Assembly: GCA_964426555.1 (NCBI GenBank)
Contig: CAYRQJ010000005.1
Location: 5,901 to 69,900, forward strand
Reading direction: 5' to 3'
Length of the DNA stretch: 64,000 nucleotides
From: an uncultured Candidatus Saccharibacteria bacterium
Lineage (GTDB): Bacteria; Patescibacteriota; Minisyncoccia; Phycocordibacterales; UBA9973
Shown: positions 892 to 64,000 of the stretch, in pieces
How positions within the stretch are numbered: position 1 is the first letter of the stretch
Layout: each line of letters starts with the position of its first letter
The notes under the pieces: model-generated
Databases searched by the model: none
The model's input: the letters and a program-made list of their open reading frames with translations, nothing else
Told to the model about the DNA's origin: nothing
Made by a program: the position numbers and the translations under genes

Positions 892-897
892 TATAAT
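892..897 (+). promoter_or_regulatory. Extended -10 element (TGcTATAAT) 8 nt upstream of the ATG at 906
   Basis: tatGcTATAATccatttacATG. Same arrangement is seen at many genes in this window. Confidence 0.4.
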
Positions 898-905
898 CCA
901 TTTAC

Positions 906-2567
906 ATGACCCAAGATGACGCATTACAAATCTTAAAAACAGGAGCCAATGTATTCCTAACAGGGGAACCGGGTAGTGGTAAAACTTATACTTTAAACCA
1001 GTATATTGATTATTTAAAAGGGCATGGTGTATGTCCTACTATAACCGCCAGTACTGGTATAGCTGCAACGCATGTTAGTGGAATAACAATTCATTCTTTT
1101 CTTGGTCTAGGTAGTAGAAAGGAATTTTCAGTTTACGATATTGAAGCCATTGCCACAACTGAACGAATTGTAAAAAAAGTTAGTAAAGCCAAAGTTCTAA
1201 TAATTGATGAAATTTCAATGCTTTCTGGCTCTACACTAAATGCAATAGACCAAATCTTAAAATCAATTCATGGTAATAATGATGCATTTGGGGGGATTCA
1301 AGTTGTATTAGTAGGAGATTTTTTTCAACTACCACCAATAACAAATTTTAACGAAGAAGTAAATTTTGCATTTCAAAGTTCTTCTTTTCGAAATGCTAAT
1401 TTTGTTACTTGTTATTTAGAAGAACAGCATCGGCAGTCTTCAGGAGAATTGCTAGATATTTTATCTGCTATTCGGGAAAATAATATTAAAGATATTCATA
1501 GAAAAATCTTAAACAATAAAATAAAAGATAAATTAGTAATAAATGATGATACAAAATTATTTACACACAATAAAAATGTTGATGCTATTAATTTAGTTGA
1601 ACTAAAAAAAATATCTGGCAAAACTCATACTTTTAAAATGACAAATAAAGGTAAAGATAGTTTAGTTGATGCTCTAATTCGGGGGTGTCTCTCACCTGAA
1701 ATTCTAGATTTAAAAATTGGAGCCAGAGTAATGTGTACTAAAAATAATACTCAGCGCGGTTTTGTAAATGGAACAATTGGAACCGTGGTTTCTTTTGGTT
1801 ATGGTAATGATTATCCTATTATCCAAACCAAAAACGGTGAAGAAATTTTAATAGAACCAATGACTTGGCAAATTGAAGAAGATGGTAAAGTAAAAGCAGA
1901 AATTACTCAGGTTCCGCTAAGACTGGCTTGGGCGATAACTGTACATAAATCTCAAGGTATGAGTTTAGACAGCGCTAGTATTGATTTAACTAATGCATTT
2001 GAATATGGACAGGGTTATGTGGCATTGTCTCGTGTTAAAAACATTAATGGTTTAAATTTGCTTGGTTTGGGAGACAAGTCATTGCTTGTTCATCCTGATG
2101 TACTAAATATAGACGAATATTTTAAAAATGAAAGTTTGAAAACTGAATCATATTTAATAACTGTCCCAGTAGCTGATTTACAGGTTTTATTTGATAAATT
2201 TATTATTTATATTGGTGGGTCACTAAAGAATACTGGTATTGTAGAAAAAAATCGTGATACTTATACTAAAACTTTAGAATTAATAAAAAATAATTCTAAT
2301 TTAGAAGAAATAATAAGAGAAAGAGATTTAAAACTGGGAACAATAATAGACCATATACATGTTTTGTATGAAAAAGGGGATATTACAATGCATGAAATTG
2401 TTAACATTGTGCCAGTCAAATTAATGAATGATTTAAAGAAAGTCTATAAAGCGTTTGATGAGTGTGGTACAGAAAAATTGTCTCCAGTTTTTGAGTTTTT
2501 AAATAAAAAGATTAGTTACGATGATTTAAAATTATTAAGAGTTCTTTATAATGCTTCATATAAATAA
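906..2567 (+). CDS. PIF1/RecD-family ATP-dependent DNA helicase with C-terminal HTH-like extension
   Basis: Walker A motif GEPGSGKT. Helicase motifs LIIDEISML, VLVGDFFQLPP and ITVHKSQGMSLD. Confidence 0.8.
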   Translation: MTQDDALQILKTGANVFLTGEPGSGKTYTLNQYIDYLKGHGVCPTITASTGIAATHVSGITIHSFLGLGSRKEFSVYDIEAIATTERIVKKVSKAKVLIIDEISMLSGSTLNAIDQILKSIHGNNDAFGGIQVVLVGDFFQLPPITNFNEEVNFAFQSSSFRNANFVTCYLEEQHRQSSGELLDILSAIRENNIKDIHRKILNNKIKDKLVINDDTKLFTHNKNVDAINLVELKKISGKTHTFKMTNKGKDSLVDALIRGCLSPEILDLKIGARVMCTKNNTQRGFVNGTIGTVVSFGYGNDYPIIQTKNGEEILIEPMTWQIEEDGKVKAEITQVPLRLAWAITVHKSQGMSLDSASIDLTNAFEYGQGYVALSRVKNINGLNLLGLGDKSLLVHPDVLNIDEYFKNESLKTESYLITVPVADLQVLFDKFIIYIGGSLKNTGIVEKNRDTYTKTLELIKNNSNLEEIIRERDLKLGTIIDHIHVLYEKGDITMHEIVNIVPVKLMNDLKKVYKAFDECGTEKLSPVFEFLNKKISYDDLKLLRVLYNASYK

Positions 2568-2605
2568 ACTTGCAGGATTAAATAAATTACAGTATATATA
2601 AATGT

Positions 2606-3679
2606 ATGATAGTTAATTTATTTGAACAATATTTAAAAGCATTAACCGGGCAAGATTTCTTGTTTGTCTTTATTTCGGTTTTTATTGGTTTTGGTTTAGG
2701 TTTTTTATTTGAGAGAGTTATTTTAAAATTAATTAGTAAAATATTATCTTTTATTCCTAAAAAAATTGGTGAATCTATCAGCCATTCTTTAAAGTTCATG
2801 CCCATATTTTGGGGTATTATTTTAGGGCTATATTTTTCTTTGAAACATATTGGAATGGGTCCAAAAATGACTTTTGCAGTTAGAGAAATTTTAATAGTTT
2901 GTGCAACTTTGTCTATTGGTTTTGTAATATCTAGATTTTTTGCCGCTAGGATAAAGTATAAAGCCCAAGAATCAGACAGTGTAATTGTGTCTACTAGTAT
3001 ATTCGGTAATATTATAAAAGTTTTAATTTTGTTTATTAGTGTATTGGTTGCACTACGAATTTTAAATGTACCAATTGGTCCAGCATTAACTGCACTGGGT
3101 GTTGGGGGAATAGCAGTAGCGTTAGCTTTAAAAGATACATTAGAAAATTTCTTCGGAGGGTTACAAATTATTTTTTCAAAGCAAGTTCGTATTGGTAACT
3201 ATATAATGCTTACAACAGGAGAAGAAGGCTTTGTACGAGATATTACTTGGCGTAATACCAGTATTGAGACTCCGTATAATACAACTTTGATTATTCCAAA
3301 TTCCAAATTATCTAGCGCGTATGTTACGAATTGTTCTGTGCCAGATGAATCTACAATTAGTAGAATAAAATTTATTGTCTCAGCTTATGCTGATGTAAAT
3401 AATGTAGAAAAAATTACTACAAATATTGCGAATAAAATTCAAGATAGCTCTATTTATAAAAGCAGTCACGAATATAAGCCATTTGTGCATTTACGTGATT
3501 TGGGGCAATTTGGGCAAGAATGGTGGGTGTATTTATTAACAGACCATGCTGAAAATATAAATAGAATAAGACATGAATTCTTAAAAGAGCTTATATTTGA
3601 ATTTCAAAATCAAAAAATAGAGCTTTTCCCGGTAGGAGAAGACCGAAAATACCAAGAATCAAGGCAGCCTTTGGTATAA
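2606..3679 (+). CDS. Small-conductance mechanosensitive channel (MscS family)
   Basis: N-terminal TM helices. MscS-domain stretch LKDTLENFFGGLQIIFSKQVRIGNYI. Confidence 0.8.
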   Translation: MIVNLFEQYLKALTGQDFLFVFISVFIGFGLGFLFERVILKLISKILSFIPKKIGESISHSLKFMPIFWGIILGLYFSLKHIGMGPKMTFAVREILIVCATLSIGFVISRFFAARIKYKAQESDSVIVSTSIFGNIIKVLILFISVLVALRILNVPIGPALTALGVGGIAVALALKDTLENFFGGLQIIFSKQVRIGNYIMLTTGEEGFVRDITWRNTSIETPYNTTLIIPNSKLSSAYVTNCSVPDESTISRIKFIVSAYADVNNVEKITTNIANKIQDSSIYKSSHEYKPFVHLRDLGQFGQEWWVYLLTDHAENINRIRHEFLKELIFEFQNQKIELFPVGEDRKYQESRQPLV

Positions 3680-3803
3680 TGCAATTAATTTTTAATTGTG
3701 GTATTATATTTTTGTAAAAGAATCTGGCTATTTTTGTCTCCGAGCATAGTGTGTAAGGATACGAGGTGCAAGAGTTTACACATTATAAGGAAGCATATAT
3801 ATC

Positions 3804-4666: not shown

Positions 4667-4879
4667 TTAATGTCCACCGTGATGGTGTGCATATTTCTCC
4701 GGATTTTTTGAAATTTTCTTAAATGCTGATTTCAGTAAAGTTTCAGCCAAATTCTTGGCTTCTTTTTTACTGTATCCTGCATCTTTGGTTTGCTGCATTA
4801 GAGCTACCATGTTTGGGCCAATTACTTGCGCCGCATTTTGTTTTAGCATTTTTAATGCCATTTTTTGATTTTTTGCCAT
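4667..4879 (-). CDS. Small hypothetical protein with C-terminal His-rich tail (HHHGGH)
   Basis: 70-aa ORF with a Lys-rich helical body. The overlapping ORF 4767..4997 is judged spurious. Confidence 0.3.
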   Translation of the reverse strand: MAKNQKMALKMLKQNAAQVIGPNMVALMQQTKDAGYSKKEAKNLAETLLKSAFKKISKNPEKYAHHHGGH

Positions 4880-4933
4880 GTTTATATAGTTGAATACATA
4901 TTATAGCATATTTAGGTGTAAAGTCAAGGTATA

Positions 4934-5163: not shown

Positions 5164-5244
5164 GATTTGATTACAGTAACACAAAATTACTGCTTTTTCA
5201 AGGAAGTTTGGGGTGAGGTTAATTTTGTGCTATATTCAAAATAC

Positions 5245-5631
5245 ATGAAATATCTTGGCATAGATTATGGCAAAAAATATATAGGGCTAGCAGTATCTGA
5301 TGATTCTGGAGTTATGGCTTTTCCGTTACATGTTTTAAAAAACAATAAAACAGTAATTGCAGTAATTCAAAAAATTTGTAAAGAACGAAATATAGATCAA
5401 ATTATAATTGGTGATTCTGTAGACCAAAAAGGAGAAAAAAATGACATTGCAGAAGATGCTGAAAAATTTGCAAAAATTTTGGAAAAAGAAACCGGTTTAA
5501 AAATAGCTTACGAAAAAGAAGGTTTTACATCGGCTCATGCACGACATGGTGGTGGGGAAACAGTAGGTAGAATAGATGCAGCCGCAGCAGCATTGATCTT
5601 ACAAAGATTTTTAGATAAATTTAATAAATAA
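5245..5631 (+). CDS. ruvX: Holliday-junction resolvase-like RuvX/YqgF
   Basis: MKYLGIDYGKKYIGLAVSD N-terminus plus downstream acidic motifs. ORF-track start 5122 overlaps the tRNA, so the in-frame ATG at 5245 is preferred. Confidence 0.75.
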   Translation: MKYLGIDYGKKYIGLAVSDDSGVMAFPLHVLKNNKTVIAVIQKICKERNIDQIIIGDSVDQKGEKNDIAEDAEKFAKILEKETGLKIAYEKEGFTSAHARHGGGETVGRIDAAAAALILQRFLDKFNK

Positions 5632-5963: not shown

Positions 5964-5990
5964 TCTATATTTTTGCTATAATTGCCATGT

Positions 5991-7070
5991 ATGGCACACT
6001 CGAAACTTTTAAGATTTTTTCCTGTTCCACAATATATTGTGATGCCGTCTTTTGGTTTGGAAATTTCTGAGAGAACAGTAAAATATTTAGAAGTAAAAGA
6101 TAGTTACTTGGGCTTAACTGTTGGTAATTATGGGTTAGAACGTATCCCCGAAGGTGCTGTAGTAAAAGGTGTAGTTGTTGACCCATCTAAACTTGTTCCA
6201 GTTTTGGCTAATATTAAAAAAACTAAAGGCGTAAATGCTGTGAGATTATCAATTCCTGAAGAACAGGTTTATACTTTTCAAATTGATATTGAATATATTC
6301 CTGGTATGGAATTGCGTGACGCAATACTATTAAATTTAGAAGGTTACATTCCTGTTTCAGCAAGTGAGGTAGAATTTGATTATGATATTATTTCTCAAAT
6401 TGGTAATAAGATAAAAATCCAAGTTGCTGCAGCCGAGAGAAATGCAATAGAAAGTTATATAAATGCATGTAATATGGCTGGCATAGAAGTATTATCTTGC
6501 GAATATGAATGCCAAGCATTAGCCAGAGCAATAACAAAACCTAAAGAAAAATCAGTAATTTATATTATAGATATTGGGAGAGCATCAACTACGTTGTCAG
6601 TAGTGCAAGATGGAGTTGTTGTTTCTTCAAACACAATAGCTCGTGGCGGAGAAGAAGCTACAACTGCAGTTTCTGAAAAATTTGGAATTGACCGTATTGA
6701 TGCTGAAATTTTAAAACACAAAATTGGCATGAATGGTAAAGACGAATACAAAGAATTACCAGAAATTTTAAAAGCGTCGTATGCGCCACTTTTTGAAGAA
6801 ATAATTAGTCAGTACAATGCTTGGCTTTCTTATATAAGAGAGAAGTCAAATATTTATAGACCAATTGAATCTGTGCAAATATTTGGAACTGAAGCATTAA
6901 CTCCTGGAATTATTGATCTTTTTCAAGCTACATTTCATAAACCAGTTTATATGGCGAATGTTTGGACAAGAATTGAAGCAGTTAGTACATTTGTCCCTAA
7001 AATTCATTTTAATGATTCGTTAGTTTATGGTACAGCAATTGGACTAGCTTTAGGGGCTTTTGAAGTATAA
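5991..7070 (+). CDS. Type IV pilus assembly ATPase-fold protein PilM-like
   Basis: Actin-like fold signature (FGLEIS...). Followed by PilN-like and PilO-like genes. The ORF-track TTG start at 5982 is replaced by the ATG at 5991; an alternative ATG at 6043 is possible. Confidence 0.6.
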   Translation: MAHSKLLRFFPVPQYIVMPSFGLEISERTVKYLEVKDSYLGLTVGNYGLERIPEGAVVKGVVVDPSKLVPVLANIKKTKGVNAVRLSIPEEQVYTFQIDIEYIPGMELRDAILLNLEGYIPVSASEVEFDYDIISQIGNKIKIQVAAAERNAIESYINACNMAGIEVLSCEYECQALARAITKPKEKSVIYIIDIGRASTTLSVVQDGVVVSSNTIARGGEEATTAVSEKFGIDRIDAEILKHKIGMNGKDEYKELPEILKASYAPLFEEIISQYNAWLSYIREKSNIYRPIESVQIFGTEALTPGIIDLFQATFHKPVYMANVWTRIEAVSTFVPKIHFNDSLVYGTAIGLALGAFEV

Positions 7071-9040: not shown

Positions 9041-9874
9041 TTATAGTGCAATTGTCAGTCCTTCTATTTGGGGCAATGGATTGTATTGGGTCAGTAGTGG
9101 GTCCAGTATTTCGTTTATTAAATTCTCATCTAATTTTTCTGCTCTGTCGTATGTATTATCCGGTAATGTTATAAATATATTTTTATGATCGTTTATTCGT
9201 GAAATTATTTCATTTGCACCAGTGTAATGGTTATCATATATGTGTGCATTAGATACAGAGTGAGTGTATATTCCAGGTTTTACATTTAATTTTTGAGCTA
9301 AAATACATTGTAATAAACAAAATCCAAATGTATCAAAAGGACACCCAAGCATCATGTCGTTTGATCTTATAATATTATGTAAATGTAATCGTCCACCAAT
9401 AATATTTACTGTAAAAGTATATGGGCAGGGTACATTTTTTTTAGGGATACCTCCGTGACCATCTTCTCGTGGGTCCCAAGTAACAATTACACCATGCCGA
9501 GAACTGGGTTCGTTTTGTAATAATTTTACAAGTTCACCTAATTGATCTCGTTCAAATGCATGACGCCAACGGTAACCATATGCTGCAGCCAGTGTACCAT
9601 CCTCTTCTAAAAAAGCGTCCCACATTTTAGTATATTTTCTTAAAAATGTTGTATCTTTAACACCGGATATAAACCAAAGCATTTCAGCTATTGCTGACTT
9701 AAATGGATTTTTTCGAAGTGTAAGAATAGGGAATCCATCATTTTCGATATCTATTTGAAATGTTAACCCTGGTAGAGCTTTTGTTTTTTTACCAGTTCTA
9801 ACATTTAATTCTTCGATACCATTTTCCATGATATTTTTTAGTAAGCCTTGGTATATAAGGTCAAAATTAGTCAT
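9041..9874 (-). CDS. Thymidylate-synthase (ThyA) family enzyme carrying Asp at the Asn177 specificity position; predicted deoxycytidylate C5-methyl/hydroxymethyl-transferase rather than canonical dUMP-dependent TS
   Basis: Aligns along its whole length with ThyA (FPILTLRK...LWFISG, AYGYRWR, catalytic Cys in VPCPY, RSNDMMLGCPFDTFGF vs E. coli RSCDVFLGLPFNIASY). The residue after the conserved PF is Asp, not Asn. A leaderless-type promoter (TATAAT, 6 nt, ATG) lies on the minus strand at 9881-9886. Confidence 0.8.
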   Translation of the reverse strand: MTNFDLIYQGLLKNIMENGIEELNVRTGKKTKALPGLTFQIDIENDGFPILTLRKNPFKSAIAEMLWFISGVKDTTFLRKYTKMWDAFLEEDGTLAAAYGYRWRHAFERDQLGELVKLLQNEPSSRHGVIVTWDPREDGHGGIPKKNVPCPYTFTVNIIGGRLHLHNIIRSNDMMLGCPFDTFGFCLLQCILAQKLNVKPGIYTHSVSNAHIYDNHYTGANEIISRINDHKNIFITLPDNTYDRAEKLDENLINEILDPLLTQYNPLPQIEGLTIAL

Positions 9875-9930
9875 ATTGTGATTATACCAAAGCTGTGTAT
9901 AATGAGCAAAATAATGATAATATAAATAAT

Positions 9931-10416
9931 ATGAGAAAAAGTGATTATCTTCCAGATGGTAGAATTATTAAATATGTGGCTAATGATAATGAATTTATAC
10001 TAGCTGCTAAAACATATGCCAAACAATATTCATTAGACAAGGTTATGCCAACAGGGGCCGTATTGGTTAAAAACGGTACTATAATTGGTATGGGAGCAAA
10101 TGGTAGTGATTACCACGAAAAAAATGGTTGTGAAAGGGTTCGCCAAAATATACCTAGTGGAGAAGGGTATGAATTATGTAATGGTTGTAACCCTAATAAT
10201 CATGCAGAACCAAAAGCTATTGAAAATGCAAAGCAAATTGGGAATGATCCCATAGATTCTGATTTGTATTTGTGGGGACATTTTTGGTGTTGTGAGCCAT
10301 GTTGGAATTCTATGATTAAGAATGGAATTAAAGATGTATTTTTAATGCAAGATAGTAAAATTCTTTTTGATAAAGATGAACCTCGTAATATTGTAGGTAA
10401 ACAATTCACTATTTAA
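9931..10416 (+). CDS. dCMP deaminase (ComEB/DCTD-type, with extra Zn-site insert)
   Basis: HAEPKAIENA (H-x-E) and CCEPC (PC-x-x-C) motifs plus the Cys-rich insert typical of dCMP deaminases. The ORF track starts at GTG 9895; the ATG at 9931 is preferred. Confidence 0.8.
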   Translation: MRKSDYLPDGRIIKYVANDNEFILAAKTYAKQYSLDKVMPTGAVLVKNGTIIGMGANGSDYHEKNGCERVRQNIPSGEGYELCNGCNPNNHAEPKAIENAKQIGNDPIDSDLYLWGHFWCCEPCWNSMIKNGIKDVFLMQDSKILFDKDEPRNIVGKQFTI

Positions 10417-10462: not shown

Positions 10463-10969
10463 TTATTTCTTATAAACTACAAAATCAAATTCAAATTCGT
10501 GGTCAGTATCTTTTTCATGGTGAATACGAGATGTTTCTTTAAAAATATTTTTATCAAATTCTGGAAAGAATGTGTCAGCATAAGGGAAAGCACCATTAAC
10601 TTCTGTAAGATAAATTGTATCTACAAAAGGAAGTCCCTGGCGATAAACTTCACCTCCGCCAATTATAAAAATTTCATTATTGTATTCACTATTGTTTCTT
10701 AAAAAATCCTCGGCTTTTTCTATAGCATCAGTGATATTTTTTGCAGTTATAACACTGTCTTGTTGCCAGTCGTCCTGACTAGTTATGACTATAGATTTAC
10801 GACGGGGTAGTGGGCGACCAATGGATTCGTATGTTTTTCTACCCATTATCATTACGGTATTGTTTGTTTTCTCTTTAAAATAAGCAAAGTCTTTTGGTAA
10901 ATGCCACAGTAATGACCCGGATTTTCCCAGTTCACGGTTTTGGCCAATAGCAGCAATTAATGAAATCAT
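10463..10969 (-). CDS. folA: Dihydrofolate reductase
   Basis: MISLIAAIGQNRELG...LPW-like N-terminus, MGRKTYESIG and FIIGGGEVY motifs. Confidence 0.85.
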   Translation of the reverse strand: MISLIAAIGQNRELGKSGSLLWHLPKDFAYFKEKTNNTVMIMGRKTYESIGRPLPRRKSIVITSQDDWQQDSVITAKNITDAIEKAEDFLRNNSEYNNEIFIIGGGEVYRQGLPFVDTIYLTEVNGAFPYADTFFPEFDKNIFKETSRIHHEKDTDHEFEFDFVVYKK

Positions 10970-11064
10970 AGGTCTATTTTACCCTTTATTCTAATAAATT
11001 CAAACTTCTTTTTATTTTGCCCGCAAATGCTATAATGGCTGTATTAATATAATCTTTGCTTTTT

Positions 11065-12552: not shown

Positions 12553-12618
12553 ACATGCTTCTTGCTAAAATTTGTGCTATAATATACTCATATTCGTATT
12601 AATAATTATATATAAATC

Positions 12619-13050
12619 ATGTTAGGAATCTTTCTTTTGCCTTTAGTAGGCGCAGTTATAGTTACAGTTATCGGAACATTATGGTACGGTCCAATTTTTG
12701 GCAAAGCGTACATGCGTGCAATGGGAGTAAATCCTGAAATGGCACCAGCTAACAAAAAAGGCATGATCGGCAAAGTTGTTTTAGACTTTATAATGACTTT
12801 TATTCTTTTATTCGGTTTTCTTAATGTAATGAATTTTGCTTATGCAGGTACATACAGTGCAGCATTTATTTTTGCATTATTGTTCTGGTTCTTTATTGTT
12901 ATGCCTATGAAAGCAAGTGGCGCTATTTGGAGCGGACGCGACAATAAATCTTCATGGACATTGTTTGGTCTAGGAGCAGGGTATTCTTTAATCTCATTTG
13001 CTATTGCTGGTCCACTATTTATTTGGCTTATTGGATTTTTTGTAAAATAA
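12619..13050 (+). CDS. Hypothetical membrane protein (4 TM)
   Basis: Hydrophobic 143-aa ORF. No domain recognised. Confidence 0.4.
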   Translation: MLGIFLLPLVGAVIVTVIGTLWYGPIFGKAYMRAMGVNPEMAPANKKGMIGKVVLDFIMTFILLFGFLNVMNFAYAGTYSAAFIFALLFWFFIVMPMKASGAIWSGRDNKSSWTLFGLGAGYSLISFAIAGPLFIWLIGFFVK

Positions 13051-13473: not shown

Positions 13474-13490
13474 TTTGGTATAATATATCT

Positions 13491-14801
13491 ATGAAAAAAA
13501 TCTTTATTCCAACAGAGACCCGCACTGGATTATTAGTTATTATTGGTTTGTTTATTGCACTATTGGCATTTATGCCTTGGATCTACGGTACACTAACTCC
13601 AATGTTTGCATTACTTGACCAACATGTTGTTTTTAATTCGGCTCTATTTTTTGCTTTGATTGGTTTAACTATTTACTTTATACATAAAGCTAATAATTTA
13701 TTAAATATACCGTATGCTGTTAGTTCAATTATATTTGGAATGTCTGGTTATCTTATTTGGAATCAGTTGTTCCCAATACCGGTAAATTTATTTTTAATAC
13801 TGGGAACTTTTGCTGTAGCTATAATTTTATTTAGACAAGGATTAGAAATAGAAACAAACATTCACCAAAAAAGCTTTTGGAAAGATGTTTTAATTGGGGT
13901 AGTGTCTGCAATTGTTTTATTTTTAGCTACACAATTTATTTTAAAACTAGCATTTCCTTTTATTAGTGAATTTTTGAAATATAGCATTCCTACTTTGTTT
14001 TTAATTTTTGGAGCTAGTTATTTGGGTGGGAATAAATCTACAAATTTAATTAAATTTGTGTATGATCTTACTTTGGTGATTATACTTTATAATTTTCTTT
14101 ATTTTAGTACCCGTCTAATGCCAGGATCTTTTACTAATCTTAGTAGTATTAGTAGTTTATACAGTGTCTCATTTGTCAGCACTGTTTTTGGAATATTCGT
14201 TGGTTTAATTGGTTCATATGTTATTCATCGCCATCATTTTTTATGGAAAGATAAAACAGAATCTCAAAATCAAAATTTGTATGCCGCTACAATTGTTATT
14301 GGGTTGGTGGCATTATCTTTAATTATTGGAGCAAATCCATTTATTGCTGCTGCTATTTCAGGAATGTTTATTAGTTTAAAAGATAAAATTGATAACCCAG
14401 AAGAAAAAATATTAAACAAAACTGAAAAGAATTTAGCAATAATTGCTTATTTTTTAATTGGTACAAGTTTATCTTTTGAAGCGTTTACTCAGTTTGGAAT
14501 AAACGGATTAATTTTGGGGGTATTTACAACTATAATTGCTCCAATAATTTTATTTATTTTTTGGATTATTTTGTCAAAATTTAATTTACTTTCTACTAAA
14601 TCACCACAAATTATATTCAGTGATATTTTCAAAAGAAAAGGCTCAACTGTATTAATGGGTTCACTTTGCTTGTTTGCTATTAGTTTTAGTCGGGGAGAAG
14701 ATTTTGTTATTTCAGCGCTTTGTTTTGTTGCTGTATTGATAATTAATTATTTATATCCTTGGGCTACTAGTTTATTAAATAGGGATATTTTGAATAAATA
14801 A
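13491..14801 (+). CDS. Hypothetical polytopic membrane protein (10 or more TM)
   Basis: 436-aa hydrophobic ORF. Preceded by TGgTATAAT at 13476-13484 plus a 6-nt spacer. Confidence 0.5.
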
Positions 14802-14824
14802 GATTATTTAGTATAATTTGCTTT

Positions 14825-15376
14825 ATGAATAAAAAGAATGATTACAAAGTATGGCTAGGTATTTTAATACTGGCTTTAATTATTATAATATCAGTTTACG
14901 GTTATAAAAAATTTGGTAACAATGTTGCAGTACCACAAGTCGGAGATGGTATTATAACTGAAGAAAAAGTAGATGTGCTACCAACAGGTAGTGAATTACT
15001 AGACAAAAAAGACAAACAAAGTATGAATCCTGTTCAAATTATTAAAAAAGACAATGGGTTAGTAATAGAAATAATCAGCGAGGGAACTGGTGAAGGTGTA
15101 CGCAGTATGCAAACTGTCTCTGTGGATTATCGTGGGATGCTAACTGATGGTAAAGTTTTTGATGAATCTTATAAACGTGGGCAGCAATTTTCTTTTACTG
15201 TTGGCGGAGGTCAAGTTATCAAAGGTTGGGATGAAGGACTACTAGGTATGAAAGTAGGCGAAAAACGTCGTCTTACAATACCAGGTGATTTAGCTTATGG
15301 TCCCAATGGTATTCCAGGAGTTATCCCAGCAAATGCTACACTTATTTTTGATATTGAATTACATTCAATAAAATAG
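14825..15376 (+). CDS. FKBP-type peptidyl-prolyl cis-trans isomerase (membrane-anchored)
   Basis: [16 protein letters not shown]...[20 protein letters not shown]...ATLIFDIEL. Confidence 0.85.
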
Positions 15377-18758: not shown

Positions 18759-18797
18759 AATTTCGTAAAATTGGCTAATTTATGTTATATTTTAAGC

Positions 18798-47802: not shown

Positions 47803-47817
47803 TGCTATTATAATCTT

Positions 47818-48624: not shown

Positions 48625-48663
48625 AAAGTCCTCCTCCTGCGAAGGGGAGGATTTAGGTGGGGT
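48625..48663. repeat. 39-nt GC-rich hairpin repeat, copy 1 (AAAGTCCTCCTCCTGCGAAGGGGAGGATTTAGGTGGGGT)
   Basis: Identical except for one base to 52025-52063. Confidence 0.7.
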
Positions 48664-48707
48664 TAGCTAATCTTTACTTTTAATAAAAATTGTGCTATAT
48701 ATAGACC

Positions 48708-49244
48708 ATGAGTATTAATAAAGAAGACATGTTAGTCAAGGTCTACGAGCTTGGCTACCACCTGATTCCGACATTAGCGGAAGAAGAGGTTCCACAATAT
48801 GTCAATAAAATCAAAGATGCGCTCGACTCGTACGGGGCGGTTATTATTAGTGAAGAAATGCCAAAACGTATGGAATTGGCATACACAATGAACCCAAGTG
48901 TTAAAAACAAAAAACAAAAGTTCGCCAAAGCTTATTTTGGATGGATCAAGTTTGAAGTAGACACAGAGTCAGCTAACGCTTTTAAGAAATTAATAGAAGA
49001 TATGGATGAAGTATTTCGTTCACTTCTAATTATTACAGTTCGTGAAAACACAATGGCTCCAAAGAAATTGTTTAGTGCTCCAAAGAAAAGAACAACTCAC
49101 CACGCAAGTAGTGACGAAAAGATTGATGTTGCAGTAGTAGACAAAGAAATTGATGCTCTTGTTGACGGAGAAACTGAAGATGCAATTACTGCTCCAGAAG
49201 TAGAAGAAGTAACAGAAGACACAACACCAGAAGATACAATTTAG
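48708..49244 (+). CDS. rpsF: 30S ribosomal protein S6 with acidic C-terminal extension
   Basis: YELGYHLIPTLAEEE...KAYFGWIKFE...LIITVRE. Followed by ssb and rpsR. Confidence 0.8.
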   Translation: MSINKEDMLVKVYELGYHLIPTLAEEEVPQYVNKIKDALDSYGAVIISEEMPKRMELAYTMNPSVKNKKQKFAKAYFGWIKFEVDTESANAFKKLIEDMDEVFRSLLIITVRENTMAPKKLFSAPKKRTTHHASSDEKIDVAVVDKEIDALVDGETEDAITAPEVEEVTEDTTPEDTI

Positions 49245-49741: not shown

Positions 49742-49751
49742 TTTATAAATT

Positions 49752-49955
49752 ATGAATAAACAAGATTTTTTTACTCAAAATAATCTAAAGCATGTGGACT
49801 ATAAAGACACAGAACTATTAAAAAAGTTCTTGGCTCCAAATGCAAGATTACTTTCTCGTCGTAAGACAAACCTTACAGCAAAAAACCAACGCAAGATGGA
49901 AGAAGCTGTAAAGCGCGCAAGATTTATGGGATTACTTCCATTTATCGCAAAATAA
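49752..49955 (+). CDS. rpsR: 30S ribosomal protein S18
   Basis: RRKTNLTAKNQRKMEEAVKRARFMGLLPF. Confidence 0.9.
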   Translation: MNKQDFFTQNNLKHVDYKDTELLKKFLAPNARLLSRRKTNLTAKNQRKMEEAVKRARFMGLLPFIAK

Positions 49956-49974
49956 TAGTTTTTTAAAACACAAC

Positions 49975-50034
49975 AAAAGCCTCAGAAATGGGGCTTTTGT
50001 TGTGTTTGACTTTCTTTAAAATTTGTTTTATAAT
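49975..50034 (+). promoter_or_regulatory. Terminator hairpin followed by sigma70-like promoter (TTGACT, 17 nt, TATAAT) for dgkA-like gene
   Basis: AAGCC...GGCTT hairpin + T-run. TTGACT at 50006-50011 and TATAAT at 50029-50034. The block GTGTTTGACTTT is shared with 23246. Confidence 0.5.
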
Positions 50035-50053
50035 ATGTAAAATTATTTAAAAT

Positions 50054-50401: not shown

Positions 50402-50417
50402 AAATTATTTTTTTAAA

Positions 50418-50446
50418 GAAACCCGGAATGATTTCGGGTTTTTATT
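50418..50446 (+). terminator. Intrinsic terminator (AACCCG-GAATGATTT-CGGGTT + T-run)
   Basis: Stem followed by TTTTATTTT. Confidence 0.7.
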
Positions 50447-50464
50447 TTGTGCTATAGTTAGATT

Positions 50465-51169
50465 ATGGAAAAAAATAATAGCTTAGAAACTATGAAAAAA
50501 TGCGCAGCAATGGGGGATAAAATTTTTGCCCAAGTTTGTGTTCAGCTAAAAAAGCATGCTTTAAAAACAGAAATTGAATTAGCAGATTATATAAAAAATG
50601 AGATATATAAACTGGGGGCAAAAGAATCTTTCCCGGTAATTGTTACATCTGGTCCAAGAGCAGGGAATAATATTCATCCCACTCCGACTACTGCTGTAAT
50701 ACAGGGATTTGTGATTATAGATTTTGGTATAAAGCTGGGCGGGTATTGTAGCGACATGACCCGTACAGCATATGTTGGTAAGCCAATGAAAGATGAGATT
50801 GCAGTATATAATACCGTTTTAAGAGCCCAAATTGGCTCTACAAGCTACCTTAAGTCTGGTTTACCAGTATCTGCACCAGACGCATTTGTACGAGGGATTT
50901 TGGCTGAAAATAGGTATAAAGGCAGGGAACTGGGGCAATATTTTATTCATACATTAGGGCATGGAATATCTAAAAAAGTCCACGAATCTCCAAAGATTTA
51001 TTATAAATCAAAAGAAATTTTTAAAATGGGTAAAGTTGTCACATCCGAACCTGGGATATATATTCCTAAAACCTTGGGCATAAGAATAGAAGACATGTAT
51101 TTGATTACTGACGGAGAACCGCAACAAATTACCAAAAGTAAAAAAGAGTTATTAGTTTTTCATAAATAA
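50465..51169 (+). CDS. M24-family metallopeptidase (Xaa-Pro aminopeptidase-like catalytic domain)
   Basis: IIDFGIKLGGYCSDMTRT, HTLGHGIS, VHESP and SEPGIY metal ligands. TGcTATAGT promoter 6 nt upstream of the ATG. Confidence 0.7.
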   Translation: MEKNNSLETMKKCAAMGDKIFAQVCVQLKKHALKTEIELADYIKNEIYKLGAKESFPVIVTSGPRAGNNIHPTPTTAVIQGFVIIDFGIKLGGYCSDMTRTAYVGKPMKDEIAVYNTVLRAQIGSTSYLKSGLPVSAPDAFVRGILAENRYKGRELGQYFIHTLGHGISKKVHESPKIYYKSKEIFKMGKVVTSEPGIYIPKTLGIRIEDMYLITDGEPQQITKSKKELLVFHK

Positions 51170-57315: not shown

Positions 57316-57996
57316 ATCGGGGGCTATACATTTGCTGTGGATAACCTTGCGAAAAATAGCTCTATTATGTTATACTAATTTCAGTGGACGGATTTTATTC
57401 GTTCACCCATTCGGACCGATCATTGAAAACTGAATATCGACCGTGAACGCATCATATGTGTTTGCATCAACTTCAGTTCGGTTTTCGCACAGTGATGCTC
57501 TGATTATTTTTTATTAAATTTTCTTAGCATGATAGACACTTTGCGGATATCGGTTTCACTGTCGGCATCCGTATCGGCCCTGTCGACAAGGCGGATAGCA
57601 TTGCTAAAAATAGTGTACTATTACGCTGTTACAATGTTTTCTGGGCAAATTATTTGTTAATTCAAATATGGCGCCACCGGAGATTGAAAGATACTTTAAA
57701 AATATTTTTTAATCTTTGCGTTCTCATACACTGCGCTACGTTTTCGTGTATGTTCCGGACAGATTATTTCACGGAAGTTGAAAATTTATTTCTAAATAAA
57801 TTTTTACAAGTTTATAAATTCGGATAGAGGAATTTATTAACAAGAAATATATTTGGTGCATCTTCGCTTATACTTATCTAATTAATTTTAGAAGGTGTCG
57901 AAATAAGCAATAAATTATGCATCGTAGAATACATATATATGTACATGTTTATTTTATAGACAATGGCATGTGTAGGTATCACCTACAAAAAACAAA

Positions 57997-60900
57997 TTGA
58001 ATTTTATTATGACTAAGTCAAAAATCGTCGCTTTCGTAGCTGCGTTTGCTGTTCTTGTTTCAGCTGGTACAACATCAGCTGCTTACATGTTCAACACAAA
58101 CCTTGGCTTCGGAATGCGCAATAGTGATGTTAAAGAACTTCAAATGCGTCTAAACGCAGAAGTTGCTACAACATTGCCTGGTACAACATACTTCGGATCT
58201 TTAACTAAATCTGCAGTACAAAAATACCAAGCTATGAAGTCAATTTCTACAACTGGATTCGTTGGTCCTTTGACTCGTGCTGCTCTTAATGGTTCTACAG
58301 CTCCATCAGGAAATCTTCCTGCAGGTTGTACAACAACTTCTGGATTTTCTCCAATATCAGGTGCTCCATGTAATGGAACAACAGGAAACACACAAACAGG
58401 TCCTGTAACAGCAATGTTAGCTACAACTAACCCAGCTTCAAGTACTCTTGTTGCAGGTCAAGCTACAGCAAACATGGCTCAATTCACATTTAGTGGAACA
58501 GGTACAGTTACAAGTGTAACTCTACAAAGAATTGGAGTATCAGCTGACTCAACTCCTTCAAACGTGTACCTATTTGATGGTGCTACTCGTTTGACAGATG
58601 CTGCTGCTGTTACAAACAATGGTATGGTAACATTTAACAATCCTTCAGGTATCTTTATGGTAAGTGGTTCAAAAACTATTTCTGTAAAATCTGATATTGC
58701 TTCTGGAACTTCAGGGCAAACTGTTGGATTTAGTTTGAACTCATTTGCTACTTCAGCAGGTACAACTACAGCTAATATCTCTGGAAACATCCACTCAATA
58801 GCTTCAGCTACTCTTGCTACAGTTGCTCACAACACAGTTACTCCTTCATCTGCTACAGTTAATCCTGGTTCAGGAATTACTGTTTGGCAAGATACATTTA
58901 CTATCTCAAACAGAGATGTAATGATGAAGCGTTTAGCTCTTCGCCAAGTTGGTTCAGCTCCTGCTAGTTCTTTCCAAAACTTCAAACTATATGTAAATGG
59001 TTTGCAAGCTGGAACAGCTACTGGTGTTGACGCAATGGGATATGTTACATTTGACATGTCTGCTGCTCCAGTTTCTCTTGTTTCTGGATCACGCGTAGTT
59101 CGTGTTGATGCTGACATCGTTTCAGGTTCTTCAAGAACATTCCAATTTTCACTTCGTCAAGCTGCTGATGTTGACTTCGTTGACTCATCATTTGGCGTAA
59201 ATATTACACCTGGTATCTTTACAGGTTCTACATGTACAAGTTCATGTACTCCTTGGACTTCTGCGGCTGCTAACACAATCTCAGGAACATCAGGAGGAAC
59301 ACTTACAATTCAAAAAGATAATGCATCTCCTTCAACAAGTCTTACTTTAAATGGAAATGACGTTAATCTTGGAACATTCAAAGTAACTGCTTACGGTGAA
59401 GCAATCAAAATTGAAACATTAACACCAGGATTTACATTTACAGATGGTGGTGCAGCTAACGCTGCTGCTACTTTACGTAATGGACGTCTTTTGATTAATG
59501 GTGTCGCTTATGGTTCAACAGCAACATTGCTTGCTGCTGGTACATCATTTACTACAAACTATACAGTGTACCCAGGTACTCCTGTAATGGTTGAAGTACA
59601 TGCTGATGTATACGATAACGATGGAACAGGATCACTTGATACAAGTGATACTATCCAAGCAAAAATCGTAACTGGTTCATCAAATGCACAACGCATGGAT
59701 TCATTGGGTTCATTTAACGCTCCTTCAAGTCCTGTTACAGCTAACACACTTCCTATAGCTACAGGAACAATGACTCTTGCAAAAAATGGTACATATGTTA
59801 ACCAAACAACAACACTTCCTACAACTAACTTCAAAGTTGGTTCATGGAATCTTACAGGTTCTTCAACAGAAGATATTCTTCTAACAACACTTTCACTTGA
59901 TGTTGATGCAGTTTCTGACAACTCATTTGAAAATGGTGATTTGACAAACATGTATGTAGTTGTAAAAAATGGTTCAAATGTAGTTGCTCAACCTTCTGCT
60001 CGTCAAACTGCTACAGCTGCAGATAATAATTTCTCAATAAACTACACTCTTCCAAAGGGTCAAACTTTGAGTATTGAATTATATGCTGATTTAGCTGATG
60101 ATGGTCTTAATGCTGCAGCTGGTTCTGAAGCTATTACTTCAACTGATTCAGTTAAGACAGATCTTACTGTTACAGGTATTTCACTTGTTGGTAATACTTC
60201 TGTAACTGCAACTTCTGCTGATACTGATGGTCAAACAATTGCTTACGGTGCTCCTACTCTAACAGCTACTCTAGATGCTTCATCTCCAGTAATTGCTATG
60301 GTTAGTGATAACCAAACAACAGATTCTGCTGCGTTTAAATTCTCAGCATTAACTGCTAATGCTACTGTTACTGATCTTACATTTACACTTCCAGCTGCTG
60401 CTGCGACAGTTGTTAATAATGTACATCTTTACGAAGGTTCAACTTTGATCGCTTCAAGAGCAGGTGCTACAACAGTTACATTCTCTGGTCTAACATGGGG
60501 TGTTACTGCTAACACATCAAAAGTTCTAACAGTTAAACTAGAATTAGGTTCAATTGGTTACGGTGCTGGTACAACAGGTGCTACATTAACTACAACACTT
60601 ACAGGATTTACTGCTGTTCAAGCAGGAGTTTCTGATGCTTCAGCAAACGATGCTGGTCCATCTATTGAAAATGATCCAGCAGGTGTTGCGTTAATTACTC
60701 GCGCTGCTGTTCCTTCAATATCACAAGGTACACTTTCAACTTCATTAGTTAATGCTATTGAAAATGATATGTACAGCTTCACAGTTTCTCCAGCTGGTGG
60801 TTCAGTTGCTGTAAAACAATTGAAATTCACAGTTGTTGTTAACGATAACGTAGGTACAAACGACACATTGACAGTTGGTTCATTCAAACTGTTCCGTGGT

Positions 60901-61490: not shown

Positions 61491-61517
61491 TTGGTTAATT
61501 TTTGCTATAATGACTGT

Positions 61518-62177
61518 ATGAAAAATCAAAAAATAAAAAATATAATTATATTATTAACAGTAATATTAGCAGGTTTTCTAATTTTTTCTTATTATTCGAA
61601 ACCAAAAGAATCCTTAAACAATAGTGAAAATACACAAAATCAAGAAGAAGTTACTACAATAGTTGATAAAAATAAAGATACTGGATCTGTTACCCAATCT
61701 TCTGATCTTGAACAAAAATTTAATGCGTCTATGGTTTCAGCTCGAAATGCTATGCTAAAAGCTGATTATTCTTCTGCAATCAAATATTACAATCAAGCTT
61801 TAGAATATAAACAAGATGATACTGCTTACGCTGGTTTGTTTACGGTATATTTAACACAAAAAAATTGGCAAAAAGCTTTTGATTCAGTTAATAAAGCTAT
61901 ATCAATTAGTCCTGTTTGGGGTGATTATTGGAAATGGAAAATATTAGTTATGAACGAAGGCCTGAAAGCAACCTTTACAGATCTAAAAAAAGTTTACGAA
62001 GAAGGGTATTTAAAAACTAAGACAGAAGAAAAAATTAATCTTGTTACTTATTTTGCTAGTATTGCTAGTTCAAAGAATCAAAAAGAATACGCAATTTCTT
62101 TATGGCAAAAAGCTATAGAATTATCTCCCGAAAATAAAGCTACTTATCAAGCAGAAATAGATAGATTAAATAAGTAA
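61518..62177 (+). CDS. Membrane-anchored TPR-repeat protein
   Basis: TPR-like AIKYYNQALEY...AYAGL...WQKAF repeats. TGcTATAAT at 61503-61511 plus a 6-nt spacer. The ORF track starts at 61491. Confidence 0.55.
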   Translation: MKNQKIKNIIILLTVILAGFLIFSYYSKPKESLNNSENTQNQEEVTTIVDKNKDTGSVTQSSDLEQKFNASMVSARNAMLKADYSSAIKYYNQALEYKQDDTAYAGLFTVYLTQKNWQKAFDSVNKAISISPVWGDYWKWKILVMNEGLKATFTDLKKVYEEGYLKTKTEEKINLVTYFASIASSKNQKEYAISLWQKAIELSPENKATYQAEIDRLNK

Positions 62178-62304: not shown

Positions 62305-62343
62305 TATTGCTAGTTTTGTTTATTTGTGTTATGGTAGCTTATT

Positions 62344-62850
62344 ATGAAATTACAAGAAATCAAGGCAAAATTATTAAATAAAGTTGATAGCAAAATAGCT
62401 TGGACTATTGTTGGGACATTAGCTATTGTTCTAATCGTTGTGGTACTAGTTTGTAACACAAAAACTAACAAAATTAGTCAAGATGTATTAGATGGTAATA
62501 CAGCAGACAAGACTACTGAATCTAAAGAAGACATTGTAAAGCCAGTTGCTACCACAAAGCCAGTAGTAAAAATGAGTTATGCAAATGCATTAAATATTTA
62601 TAAAGACCGTCGTATTCAATTAAATGACGCTTGTCAGGCTATTCCAAATACAATGACTTTTAAAAACGGTACTACTATAATGATAGATAATCGTTCAAAG
62701 ACAGCTCGTAAACTAAATATAAATGGCGCGTATACTGTGGGATCATACGACTACATAACAGTAAAATTAACTTCAAACACACTACCTAAAACAATTTTAA
62801 TTGACTGTGGAGCTAGTCAAAACGTAGCAACAATCCTGTTACAAAAGTAA
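62344..62850 (+). CDS. Hypothetical membrane-anchored protein, lying between REP-like copies A and B
   Basis: 168-aa ORF with an N-terminal TM helix. Confidence 0.4.
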   Translation: MKLQEIKAKLLNKVDSKIAWTIVGTLAIVLIVVVLVCNTKTNKISQDVLDGNTADKTTESKEDIVKPVATTKPVVKMSYANALNIYKDRRIQLNDACQAIPNTMTFKNGTTIMIDNRSKTARKLNINGAYTVGSYDYITVKLTSNTLPKTILIDCGASQNVATILLQK

Positions 62851-62885
62851 AATAATTTTTAACTTTTAAAAATAAAAATTCCTAC

Positions 62886-62918
62886 TTATCCACATGTTAA
62901 GGCAAGACCTATACATAT
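62886..62918 (+). repeat. REP-like unit copy B (TTATCCACATGT-TAAGGCAAGACCTAT-ACATAT)
   Basis: Direct match to copy C. Confidence 0.8.
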
Positions 62919-63021
62919 CTGTATATGTATATATCTCAAAAGAGCAGCTTTATTGGCTGCTCTTTTTGTTTATACTGAACACCGCTTATTTAGTCTTTAG
63001 GATGTGTTTTCCTAAACTAAG

Positions 63022-63750
63022 TTATCCACATGTTAAGGCAAGACCTATACATGATAAAATTATAATAGTTATGAGTACAAGAAAAGTTTCATTTGTTTTG
63101 GGTGAATATTATCATCTGTATAACAGGGGTAATAGTAAACAACTAATTTTTCTTGATGATTCTGATAAAAGACATTTTATAAATCTTCTTTATTTATCAA
63201 ATACAACAAAAAGAGTTGTGATTGATCGTGTATCTAAAAATATATATGATTTCGACAGGGAAGAATGTCTAGTTTCAATAGGTGCGTATTGTTTGATGCC
63301 GAATCATTTTCATATTTTAATTACCGAAAAAACAAATGGTGGAATAAGTAAATTTATGCAAAAGTTAACAACTGCTTATTCAATGTATTTTAATAAAAAA
63401 TATAATAGAACTGGGGCATTATTTGAAGGAAAATTTAAATCACAACACTTGAATAAAGATGAATACTTGAAATATGTCTTTTCTTATATACACCTAAATC
63501 CTTTAAAATTAATAGATAAAGATTGGAAAATAAATGGAATACAAGATAAAACAAAAGCTTTGAATTACTTAAACACGTATCAAGAAAGTAGTTATTTAGA
63601 CTACCTTGATATTAATCGCAAGCAAGGACTGATACTTGATAGAGGATTATTCCCAGAATATTTTCCAAATAAATATTCTTTCGAAATCGAAATATTTGAC
63701 TGGTTATCTTATAACGAAGATGTATAGGTCTTGCCTTAACATGTGGATAA
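63022..63750 (+). mobile_element. REPtron-like unit: IS200-like/RAYT Y1 transposase gene flanked by inverted REP-like hairpin repeats (copies C and D)
   Basis: Copy C at 63022-63054 (forward) and copy D at 63718-63750 (reverse) bracket the transposase CDS. The stop codon lies inside copy D. Confidence 0.7.
63071..63727 (+). CDS. REP-associated tyrosine transposase (RAYT)/IS200-like HuH Y1 transposase
   Basis: YHLYNRGN, HuH motif LMPNHFHILI, and catalytic-Tyr region YVFSYIHLNPLK. The ORF-track start at 62894 reads through repeat copies B and C, so the ATG at 63071 is preferred. Confidence 0.8.
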   Translation: MSTRKVSFVLGEYYHLYNRGNSKQLIFLDDSDKRHFINLLYLSNTTKRVVIDRVSKNIYDFDREECLVSIGAYCLMPNHFHILITEKTNGGISKFMQKLTTAYSMYFNKKYNRTGALFEGKFKSQHLNKDEYLKYVFSYIHLNPLKLIDKDWKINGIQDKTKALNYLNTYQESSYLDYLDINRKQGLILDRGLFPEYFPNKYSFEIEIFDWLSYNEDV

Positions 63751-63800
63751 CTATGTTTATTTAGTGTTGTGCTTTTTAAAAATTGTTATAATTTAGTTAT

Positions 63801-64000
63801 ATGAATATAAGACAGTTTTATGTGCTGATCTTTACTTTTTTATTAACAAATATTTTTGGAACTAATTTAGTTTTTGCTGATACGACATACAATAATGCTT
63901 TCCAGTTACAAGCTGAAGCTATAAATAACGGGGGATATATAAGGCTAACCAAATCTGGTTCGCCTTATTTTTTTCCTAATAGCTTACAAATTGAAGCAAA
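63801..64000 (+). CDS. Partial CDS: secreted hypothetical protein (3' end outside window)
   Basis: Signal peptide MNIRQFYVLIFTFLLTNIFGTNLVFA. TGtTATAAT at 63784-63792 plus an 8-nt spacer, then ATG. Confidence 0.4.
   Translation, partial: MNIRQFYVLIFTFLLTNIFGTNLVFADTTYNNAFQLQAEAINNGGYIRLTKSGSPYFFPNSLQIEA

Follow-up and report, generated by a model that had tools for sequence, protein, structure and literature searches.

About half of the protein-coding transcription units in a 64,000-nucleotide (nt) stretch of bacterial DNA (contig CAYRQJ010000005.1 of an uncultured Candidatus Saccharibacteria bacterium, positions 5,901 to 69,900; hereafter the window) appear to start from an extended -10 promoter placed immediately before the initiation codon. 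Their RNAs probably have the A of the ATG, or a base 1-2 nt upstream of it, as the first nucleotide, which would make them leaderless mRNAs. A preliminary description of the window had listed 15 such sites, stated that nearly all carry TG at -15/-14 and proposed that most operon-leading genes are leaderless. The 15 sites were all found at their coordinates, each consisting of TGn, a TATAAT-like hexamer, 6-8 nt and ATG, and the TG is present at 15 of 15. The spacer between hexamer and ATG is 6 nt at nine of these sites, 7 nt at one and 8 nt at five. Beyond this list, eight strong sites were identified, with ATGs at 5245, 9931, 10969 (minus strand), 14825, 18798, 36978, 41250 (minus strand) and 62344. 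The window has 22 strong sites in total, 20 of them with TG upstream of the hexamer, and up to four weak ones (31575, 48708, 51874 on the minus strand, and 4126). Compared with the approximately 43-45 protein-coding units in our own tally from the gene table, these sites account for about half; the catalogue stood, and the word "most" had to be reduced accordingly.

The -10/ATG arrangement is real and occurs far above chance. The exact sequence TGNTATAAT is found 21 times on the two strands of the window, and after 12 of these an ATG at 6-8 nt opens an open reading frame (ORF) of at least 66 amino acids. When hexamer offsets were taken against the ATGs of ORFs of at least 80 amino acids, a peak was observed at -12, -13 and -14 (10 + 2 + 4 = 16 cases), with about 0.4 per offset elsewhere. 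The string TATAAT-N6-8-ATG occurs 21 times in the window versus 6.4 ± 2.8 in dinucleotide shuffles, and 0 of 100 shuffles reached 21. To avoid circularity, an independent 12-column matrix of the -10 region was trained on 167 sites of unrelated contigs of the candidate phyla radiation (CPR; contigs L083-L160). For 20 of the 67 gene starts, this matrix located a site at a spacer of 5-9 nt that ranks in the top 0.1% of the positions in the window. Twenty other five-base spacer windows gave 0-2 each (mean 0.6), and a comparable site was present at 8 of 2188 non-start ATGs (0.37%), which corresponds to a binomial P of ~1e-32 for the gene starts. Within the window, the comparison with background composition came out in favor of the pattern: shuffles and other ATGs give far fewer cases than gene starts.

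The features of the sites support the identification of the motif as a sigma-70-type extended -10 promoter, and not as a ribosome site. For the promoter alignment, 159 non-redundant sites from contigs L081-L160 were anchored on the hexamer and selected only for the TG and for T, A and T at hexamer positions 1, 2 and 6. The free hexamer positions lean towards TATAAT, and the bases just before the TG are T (0.70) and A or G (0.83), which form a "-16" TRTG motif of the kind found in Gram-positive promoters. At the -35 region, which was also free in the selection and is separated from the hexamer by exactly 17 nt, T, T and G reach 0.64, 0.61 and 0.31, over a background of about 0.3, 0.3 and 0.18. 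The spacers in these contigs are mostly 6 nt (88 sites), followed by 7 nt (38), 9 nt (19) and 8 nt (13), with few beyond; the same selection in the window gave 10 sites at 6 nt, three at 7 nt and three at 8 nt. Transcription usually starts six bases after the -10 box, and the starting nucleotide is a purine that follows a pyrimidine. Since the most common spacer equals this usual distance, the A of the ATG would be +1. A pyrimidine occupies position -1, next to the ATG, at 75-94% of the sites versus 60% in other genes.

The motif is also distributed as a promoter would be. Scored as TGnTAnnnT at a spacer of 5-9 nt, it precedes 36% of leading versus 10% of internal genes in the window, 64% versus 0% in contigs L081 and L082, and 28% versus 16% in more distant CPR contigs that carry an M16 peptidase gene. 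Among the non-CPR controls it was found before one of 510 leading and one of 196 internal genes. At spacers of 15-19 nt the frequency is 0-1% in the window, in L081/L082 and in the distant M16 contigs. The window contains 19 terminator-like hairpins versus 8.1 expected; two of them (47778-47795 and 50417-50443) run straight into leaderless promoters, and hairpins of this kind, with a T-run, lie upstream of 13491, 24678 and 61518. The same element is found before tRNA genes. A putative tRNA-Arg promoter (5173-5201, minus strand) is composed of TTGAAA, 17 nt and TGtTACTGT, with 9 nt between its -10 and the mature 5' end (5163). In this single case the 5' leader of the tRNA precursor would be ~2 nt at most. 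Ten tRNAs in the CPR contigs have a long enough upstream region to be examined, and the motif lies before four of these as well, in three cases at no more than 50 nt. This supports the promoter reading, on a small sample (11 tRNAs in ~1.3 Mb of CPR loci).

The pattern had been used to correct the starts of the ORFs called at 5982, 41733, 43291 and 61491. These corrections hold because a motif-blind rule, Pfam alignments and alignments with the L081 orthologues agree. The motif-blind caller, which opens each ORF at the first ATG that follows the preceding in-frame stop and has a 90-amino-acid minimum, yielded 5991, 43330 and 61518, and also 11065, 9931, 31575, 18798 and 58009. The gene at 41757 (77 amino acids) is below this limit, and in the sequence listing no earlier ATG is present in the ORF. 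Pfam profiles align from residues 1-22 of the assigned starts, and the L081 orthologues align from residue 1. Upstream TTG or GTG codons were considered as the true starts and rejected: the extensions add only 3-13 residues, contain the promoter and are not kept in L081, and the Pfam profiles align from the ATG. At a spacer of 6 nt, the start codon of ORFs of at least 100 amino acids is ATG in 110 cases, GTG in one and TTG in none.

The window (GC content 31-37%) comes from the low-GC chromosome of an ultrasmall Patescibacteria (CPR) bacterium, probably of Parcubacteria type, a placement based on glycyl-tRNA synthetase (GlyRS) matches. The best matches of its GlyRS, at 61-62% identity, are in metagenome-assembled Patescibacteria, Moraniibacteriota, Kerfeldbacteria and Paceibacterota genomes, and therefore the window was assigned to this group; none of the species genomes returned has a GlyRS more than 62% identical, and an exact look-up of the protein gave no public contig. 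Five of the comparison loci (L005, L007, L008, L009 and L010) come from third-party assemblies labelled "uncultured Gammaproteobacteria", "Micavibrio" or "Bdellovibrionales"; their GlyRS is ~60% identical to that of the window, which is the CPR range, and these labels may be wrong. The closest relatives of the window are unlabelled metagenome contigs.

The M16 peptidases of contigs L081 and L082 are 76% identical to that of the window, and L081 is syntenic with the region 32-51 kb. The promoter layout is kept at seven L081 orthologues (36978, 38906, 41250, 42010, 43330, 48708 and 50465), where the TG, T-A---T and the spacer length are the same, with different bases at n and in the spacer. For example, at 38906 the window has TGcTAGAAT-aaaaaa-ATG versus TGgTATAAT-cgttta-ATG in L081, and the L081 orthologue of 50465 has a hairpin followed by TGtTATATT, 6 nt and ATG. 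Among more distant M16-peptidase orthologues (45-59% identity), TGnTAnnnT lies 6-8 nt before the ATG in about 25 of 66, as judged by eye, and many of the remaining ones abut the stop codon of the upstream gene and are thus operon-internal. In CPR contigs of at least 9 kb, 50 of 60 have at least one such start, and in 30 of 55 it is found at at least 20% of the genes. The rate of leaderless starts does not correlate with GC content across CPR contigs (rho -0.02), and clear cases are present in contigs at 48-52% GC, set in GC-rich sequence; therefore, the pattern is not an AT-richness effect.

That these genes have no Shine-Dalgarno (SD) sequence, as previously described, was borne out, and the absence is general. 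Motifs GGAG, GAGG or AGGA at -18 to -4 were found in 2 of 61 window genes, a frequency equal to that of the control region. In a spirochaete control locus the same test gave 8 of 21 versus 1, and in a Lachnospiraceae locus 7 of 12 versus 5. SD motifs are essentially absent across the window and loci L001-L021 and L081-L160. A set of 387 CPR genes with no -10 box close by shows no enrichment of G at -15 to -5, and A rises to 0.43-0.50 at -11 to -2. The correlation of leaderless use with SD loss across loci (rho -0.21, P 0.12) is uninformative, because SD motifs hardly occur in any of the loci. The conserved 3' end of 16S rRNA, which holds the anti-SD tail, was sought in the window and in all 160 loci, and none was found. 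The window also has intergenic hairpins rich in GGAGG/CCTCC, some with T-runs (848-880, 41290-41335, 41700-41740, 47357-47376, and 48632-48651 on the minus strand). GGAGG-like strings close to genes seem to occur only within such hairpins, 30-45 nt from the ATG, and not as ribosome sites.

Clearly leadered units are present in the window as well (ileS, rpsL, the ribonucleotide reductase gene, 12619 and 41343), and all of them are without an SD site. At 12619, a counter-example to leaderless initiation (12575-12621, plus strand), TGCTATAAT (TGcTATAAT) lies 35 nt before the ATG, giving a predicted leader of ~28 nt. Other -10 sites are located 64 nt upstream of 41343, 56 nt upstream of the ribonucleotide reductase gene (25902), and 11-28 nt upstream of 11065, 50054 and 56509. 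Another counter-example is ileS (32490), which is preceded by a reduced T-box leader (32303-32437, plus strand; RF00230, 39 bits versus a gathering score of 93, E 3.5e-7). In the full leader (32303-32489), the T-box sequence GGTGGTACCACG and the terminator (ctcgtcc...ggacgagttttttt) are clear, just before the ATG, and the start of the T-box sequence is also found upstream of ileS in L081. Standard annotation would miss this element, which is below the Rfam gathering score. An unlisted ORF of 70 amino acids (MAKNQKMALK...HHHGGH; 4667-4879, minus strand) has a near-consensus promoter of TTGACT, 16 nt and TGCTATAAT, with 20 nt to the ATG (ORF and promoter together 4667-4908), a predicted leader of ~13 nt and no SD site; it is located between two terminators in an apparent 480-nt non-coding gap. 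Genes inside operons had been said to abut or overlap their predecessors. This is correct for many, which are only 1-5 nt apart, and too strict as a rule, the gaps spanning -17 to about 35 nt.

From these data a mechanism can be proposed. The polymerase would recognize an extended -10 element with the consensus T-R-T-G-n-T-A-t-a-A-T and a weak TTG at -35, its last T located 6 nt (less often 7-9) before the ATG. It would then start 7 nt after the -10, on a purine following a pyrimidine, so that the A of the ATG would be the first base or lie 1-2 nt in. The resulting mRNA would have no 5' untranslated region and no SD site, and the ribosome would recognize the 5'-terminal AUG directly with initiator tRNA. 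This way of reading leaderless mRNA is established in E. coli, mycobacteria and Deinococcus, and it depends on the 5'-terminal AUG. Downstream and leadered genes are A-rich and G-poor upstream or abut a stop codon, which suggests re-initiation, or initiation on unstructured A-rich RNA, for these cistrons. A +1 at the ATG is supported because the spacer mode of 6 nt, the -35 TTG, the TRTG, the pyrimidine at -1, the restriction to ATG starts and the conservation in orthologues all agree. The leaderless reading was supported by all the computational tests made, and the transcription start itself we infer from the sequence.

Several observations weigh against leaderless initiation as the general explanation. 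One of the 15 sites listed originally, at 48696, has a poor hexamer, TATATA, whose last position is not T. At sites with spacers of 7-9 nt, 1-3 additional bases may precede the ATG in the transcript. Four promoters (5991, 14825, 35963 and 36978) lie close behind an upstream gene or within its 3' end, and read-through transcripts would therefore hold these ATGs internally. The motif precedes 16% of the genes scored as internal in distant CPR contigs, which makes the contrast between leading and internal genes one of degree, and gene starts in the comparison contigs were crude "first ATG" calls. In CPR contigs found through GlyRS the signal is weaker (9% versus 4%), and the trait therefore seems to vary among CPR lineages. 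A generic scan for TTGACA-N16-18-TATAAT gave 59 matches versus 79.9 in shuffles, and it was dropped in favor of the extended -10 motif and the matrix; only the extended -10 form is informative, not the generic -35/-10 pair. Finally, eight non-start ATGs bear a comparable motif. Among these, 5245 opens an ORF of 128 amino acids and is evidently the true start of ORF 5122/5137-5631, whose longer form overlaps the tRNA-Arg gene.

Other explanations for the pattern were considered. The promoters could be real and yet minor or conditional, most of the protein being made from longer transcripts started upstream, in which case the genes would be only partly leaderless. The four promoters mentioned above, located 27 nt or less from a same-strand upstream gene or inside it, speak for this possibility, as do the second good -10 sequences found further upstream of some genes (43330 and 9874). 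For about 16 of the strong sites, however, what lies upstream is a terminator, a divergent gene or a gap of 35 nt or more, and no other good -10 is present within 120 nt. Furthermore, read-through transcripts would offer no SD site to the internal ATG, and the exact spacer length is conserved, implying selection on starting at the ATG. We regard this alternative as unlikely, although it is the most plausible of those considered.

The TATAAT-like motif could instead be a ribosome-binding signal of non-SD type within a longer mRNA, similar to those of GeneMarkS-2 group B or pairing with an altered 16S 3' tail. Another signal could be expected in a lineage that has no SD motifs, and the motif is at the distance expected of a ribosome site, precedes 10-16% of the genes scored as internal, and shares its distance of 6-8 nt with both promoter boxes and ribosome sites in GeneMarkS-2 (PMC6028130). 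However, a TTG exactly 17 nt upstream and a TG one base off the hexamer are RNA-polymerase contacts that would be meaningless to a ribosome, and the same motif precedes tRNA genes and directly follows terminators. Leading genes carry it 2-4 times as often as internal ones do, a bias that is not seen for group B motifs, which are equally frequent in the two classes (PMC6028130), and the genes that have no motif show only diffuse A-richness. A ribosome-binding signal is consequently improbable, more so than longer transcripts. As for a by-product of AT-rich composition combined with a choice of starts fitted to the motif, the window is indeed AT-rich (32-33% GC), with ~130 copies of TATAAT on the two strands, and the starts had been chosen originally with the motif in mind. 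Yet the number of cases drops 3- to 30-fold in shuffles, at other spacings and at non-start ATGs, the motif-blind starts are identical and fit the Pfam and orthologue alignments, contigs at 48-52% GC also show the pattern, and AT-rich Bacteroidota controls do not. This last explanation is already refuted by these controls, and we give it almost no weight. Initiation at the ATG from an extended -10 promoter is the likely reading.

The candidate promoters are given below as the span from the start of the TGn to the end of the ATG (plus strand unless indicated). The first, 889-908 (TGcTATAAT, 8 nt), precedes a PIF1-like helicase gene (906-2567) and has a matrix score of 12.5, within the top 0.008% of window positions. 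The new start at 5245 has TGcTATATT and 8 nt (5228-5247), and TGcTATAAT with 8 nt (5974-5993) precedes a pilM-like gene (5991-7070) that leads a five-gene unit. Thymidylate synthase, thyA (9041-9874), has TGgTATAAT and 6 nt on the minus strand (9872-9889), and the divergent dCMP deaminase gene (9931-10416) has TGaTAATAT and 7 nt (9915-9933). The dihydrofolate reductase gene (10463-10969) has a weaker site on the minus strand, GGgTAAAAT with no TG and 6 nt (10967-10984). A membrane protein gene (13491-14801) has TGgTATAAT and 6 nt (13476-13493), with its hairpin and T-run just upstream. It is followed by an FKBP isomerase gene (14825-15376) with another weaker site, TAgTATAAT with no TG and 7 nt (14809-14827). 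TGtTATATT and 6 nt (18783-18800) precede an HlyD-like gene (18798-20399) that leads an ABC-type unit. Directly after rplK, a gene for a 280-amino-acid protein that has no Pfam match (24678-25520) starts from TGgTATAAT and 8 nt (24661-24680).

In the region 32-51 kb, the promoter of an ion-channel gene (35963-36412) is located within the 3' end of ileS (35948-35965; TGcTATAAT, 6 nt). Three of the sites whose layout is kept in L081 precede the genes for a 630-amino-acid protein (36978-38870; site 36962-36980, TGaTATAAT, 7 nt), a family-2 glycosyltransferase (40528-41250; minus strand, 41248-41265, TGaTATAAT, 6 nt) and an AI-2E transporter (43330-44409; site 43315-43332, TGtTATAGT, 6 nt). The GlyRS gene (38906-40285) has TGcTAGAAT and 6 nt (38891-38908), versus TGgTATAAT and 6 nt in L081. 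The gene for a 77-amino-acid membrane protein (41757-41990) has TGcTATAAT and 6 nt (41742-41759) with a score of 14.8, and the M16 peptidase gene (42010-43272) has TGcTATAAT and 7 nt (41994-42012), the same layout being present in many distant orthologues. The two terminator hairpins followed by a start are those of TatD (47818-48624; hairpin 47778-47795 and T-run, whole element 47778-47820, TGcTATTAT, 6 nt) and of an M24 peptidase (50465-51169; hairpin 50417-50443, whole element 50417-50467, TGcTATAGT, 6 nt). The weak hexamer mentioned above, TGcTATATA with 6 nt (48693-48710), precedes rpsF (48708-49244). The 15 nt before rpsF (TGCTATATATAGACC, 48693-48707) are identical in the window and L081 (~14811-14825); the two rpsF proteins are only 80% identical, and the other promoters of the two contigs differ. 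An identical promoter with this odd TATATA hexamer may reflect added regulation of the ribosomal-protein unit.

The remaining strong sites are located near the end of the window. A TPR protein gene (61518-62177) has TGcTATAAT and 6 nt (61503-61520) with a hairpin and T-run upstream, a 168-amino-acid protein gene (62344-62850) has TGtTATGGT and 8 nt (62327-62346), and an ORF running to the window end has TGtTATAAT and 8 nt (63784-63803). Weak candidates are the site before the dUTPase gene (31575-31997; 31558-31577, TAGAAT with no TG, 8 nt, score 3.8), 51874 on the minus strand (hexamer TAAGAT, spacer 6 nt), and 4126, a possible alternative start. The window includes numerous housekeeping genes, such as rpsL, rpsG, fusA, secE, nusG, rplK, the isoleucine, glycine and methionine synthetase genes, recA, ftsK, thyA, folA, glyA and ribonucleotide reductase. 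One tRNA was the only Rfam family at gathering score. Four gaps of 300-700 nt (57316-58008, 45858-46232, 25521-25901 and 49742-50053) have no ORF of at least 80 amino acids and no gathering-score Rfam match, and they may contain small genes, leaders or RNAs.

The arrangement itself is known from bacterial leaderless genes of the GeneMarkS-2 group C type; the host lineage, the TRTGn box and the remaining genes, which have no SD sites, differ. Group C genomes have a Pribnow box 6-8 nt before the first genes in operons and belong mostly to Actinobacteria and Deinococcus-Thermus (Lomsadze et al. 2018, PMC6028130). Leaderless operons make up ~25-50% in bacteria, and the proportion is higher in Deinococcus deserti, with 167 of 262 mapped genes (PMC6028130). 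The window resembles group C in the location of the box 6-8 nt before the start of unit-leading genes, and its ~50% is at the upper end of the range. In contrast to the high-GC Actinobacteria and Deinococcus of group C, in which other genes are said to use ribosome-binding sites, the window is from a CPR bacterium at 33% GC, its -10 is of the extended TRTGn type, and its internal and leadered genes have no SD site. In mycobacteria, a large share of the genes is reportedly leaderless and transcribed from a TANNNT box with the start codon at the 5' end, according to work by Cortes in 2013 and Shell in 2015. In these bacteria GTG is accepted besides ATG, and leadered genes retain SD use. The box of the window is likewise placed so that the start codon would be the 5' end, whereas the count at spacer 6 is here 110 ATG versus one GTG and no SD use was seen.

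In Haloferax volcanii and other haloarchaea most transcripts are described as leaderless and the leadered ones as having no SD motifs (PMC3986360), and the archaeal promoter box is located ~26 nt upstream (PMC6028130). The window is similar to haloarchaea in that leaderless genes and leadered genes with no SD site are found together. The difference is that haloarchaea use archaeal promoters and archaeal initiation factors, and here the promoter would be of bacterial sigma-70 type. The extended -10 promoters of Gram-positive bacteria, with their "-16 region" TRTGn, were reportedly defined by Voskuil and Chambliss in 1998. They share with the sites in the window the T-R-T-G-n before TATAAT and a weak or dispensable -35, but they normally drive leadered mRNAs that contain SD sites. 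Translation that uses no SD sites in Bacteroidota is said to have been described by Baez and colleagues in 2019. As in Bacteroidota (GeneMarkS-2 group B), the non-leaderless genes here are A-rich and G-poor upstream and have no SD site; unlike the window, the Bacteroidota control loci show no -10 box adjacent to the ATG, in keeping with the single case among the 510 leading genes of the non-CPR controls.

About half of Parcubacteria have no anti-SD motif, a set that overlaps with the lineages devoid of uL1, and no SD helix is expected to form in this subgroup, of which the ribosome side only was described (Tsurumaki et al. 2022, PMC9297842). The window has no SD motifs, and within it rplK (24174-24602) is followed by the unrelated and itself apparently leaderless 280-amino-acid protein gene and not by rplA (uL1). 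At this locus, such an organization would fit the subgroup. An open-access literature search returned no paper treating leaderless mRNA in CPR, only incidental mentions together with Patescibacteria, candidate phyla radiation or Saccharibacteria. We tentatively propose, with somewhat less than even confidence, that this lineage and many related CPR lineages have wholly given up SD pairing. First cistrons would be read from a 5'-AUG and later ones by re-initiation or from A-rich RNA, and the ribosome reductions reported for CPR (no anti-SD tail, uL1 or bS21, and a short bS1) would be co-adapted to this mode.

The findings have practical consequences for annotation. ORF lists that reach to the furthest TTG or GTG mis-set N-termini, as at 5982, 41733, 43291 and 61491, and also at 5122, which overlaps the tRNA; the -10 box is an independent start signal for annotating metagenome-assembled CPR genomes. 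They also bear on genome organization. With no leader, and with promoters in terminator T-runs or in the end of the preceding gene, a unit can begin ~20 nt after the previous one, a compaction that fits the small genomes of these bacteria. The loss of the anti-SD in about half of Parcubacteria (PMC9297842) leaves open how start codons are found, and the window together with ~140 related contigs suggests a testable answer. A large and deeply diverged bacterial group would join the heavy users of leaderless initiation, which bears on the view of this mode as ancestral. If SD pairing has indeed been wholly abandoned, CPR would be a bacterial clade with leaderless initiation as the default, as in haloarchaea, and this would explain how translation starts in the Parcubacteria that have no anti-SD motif.

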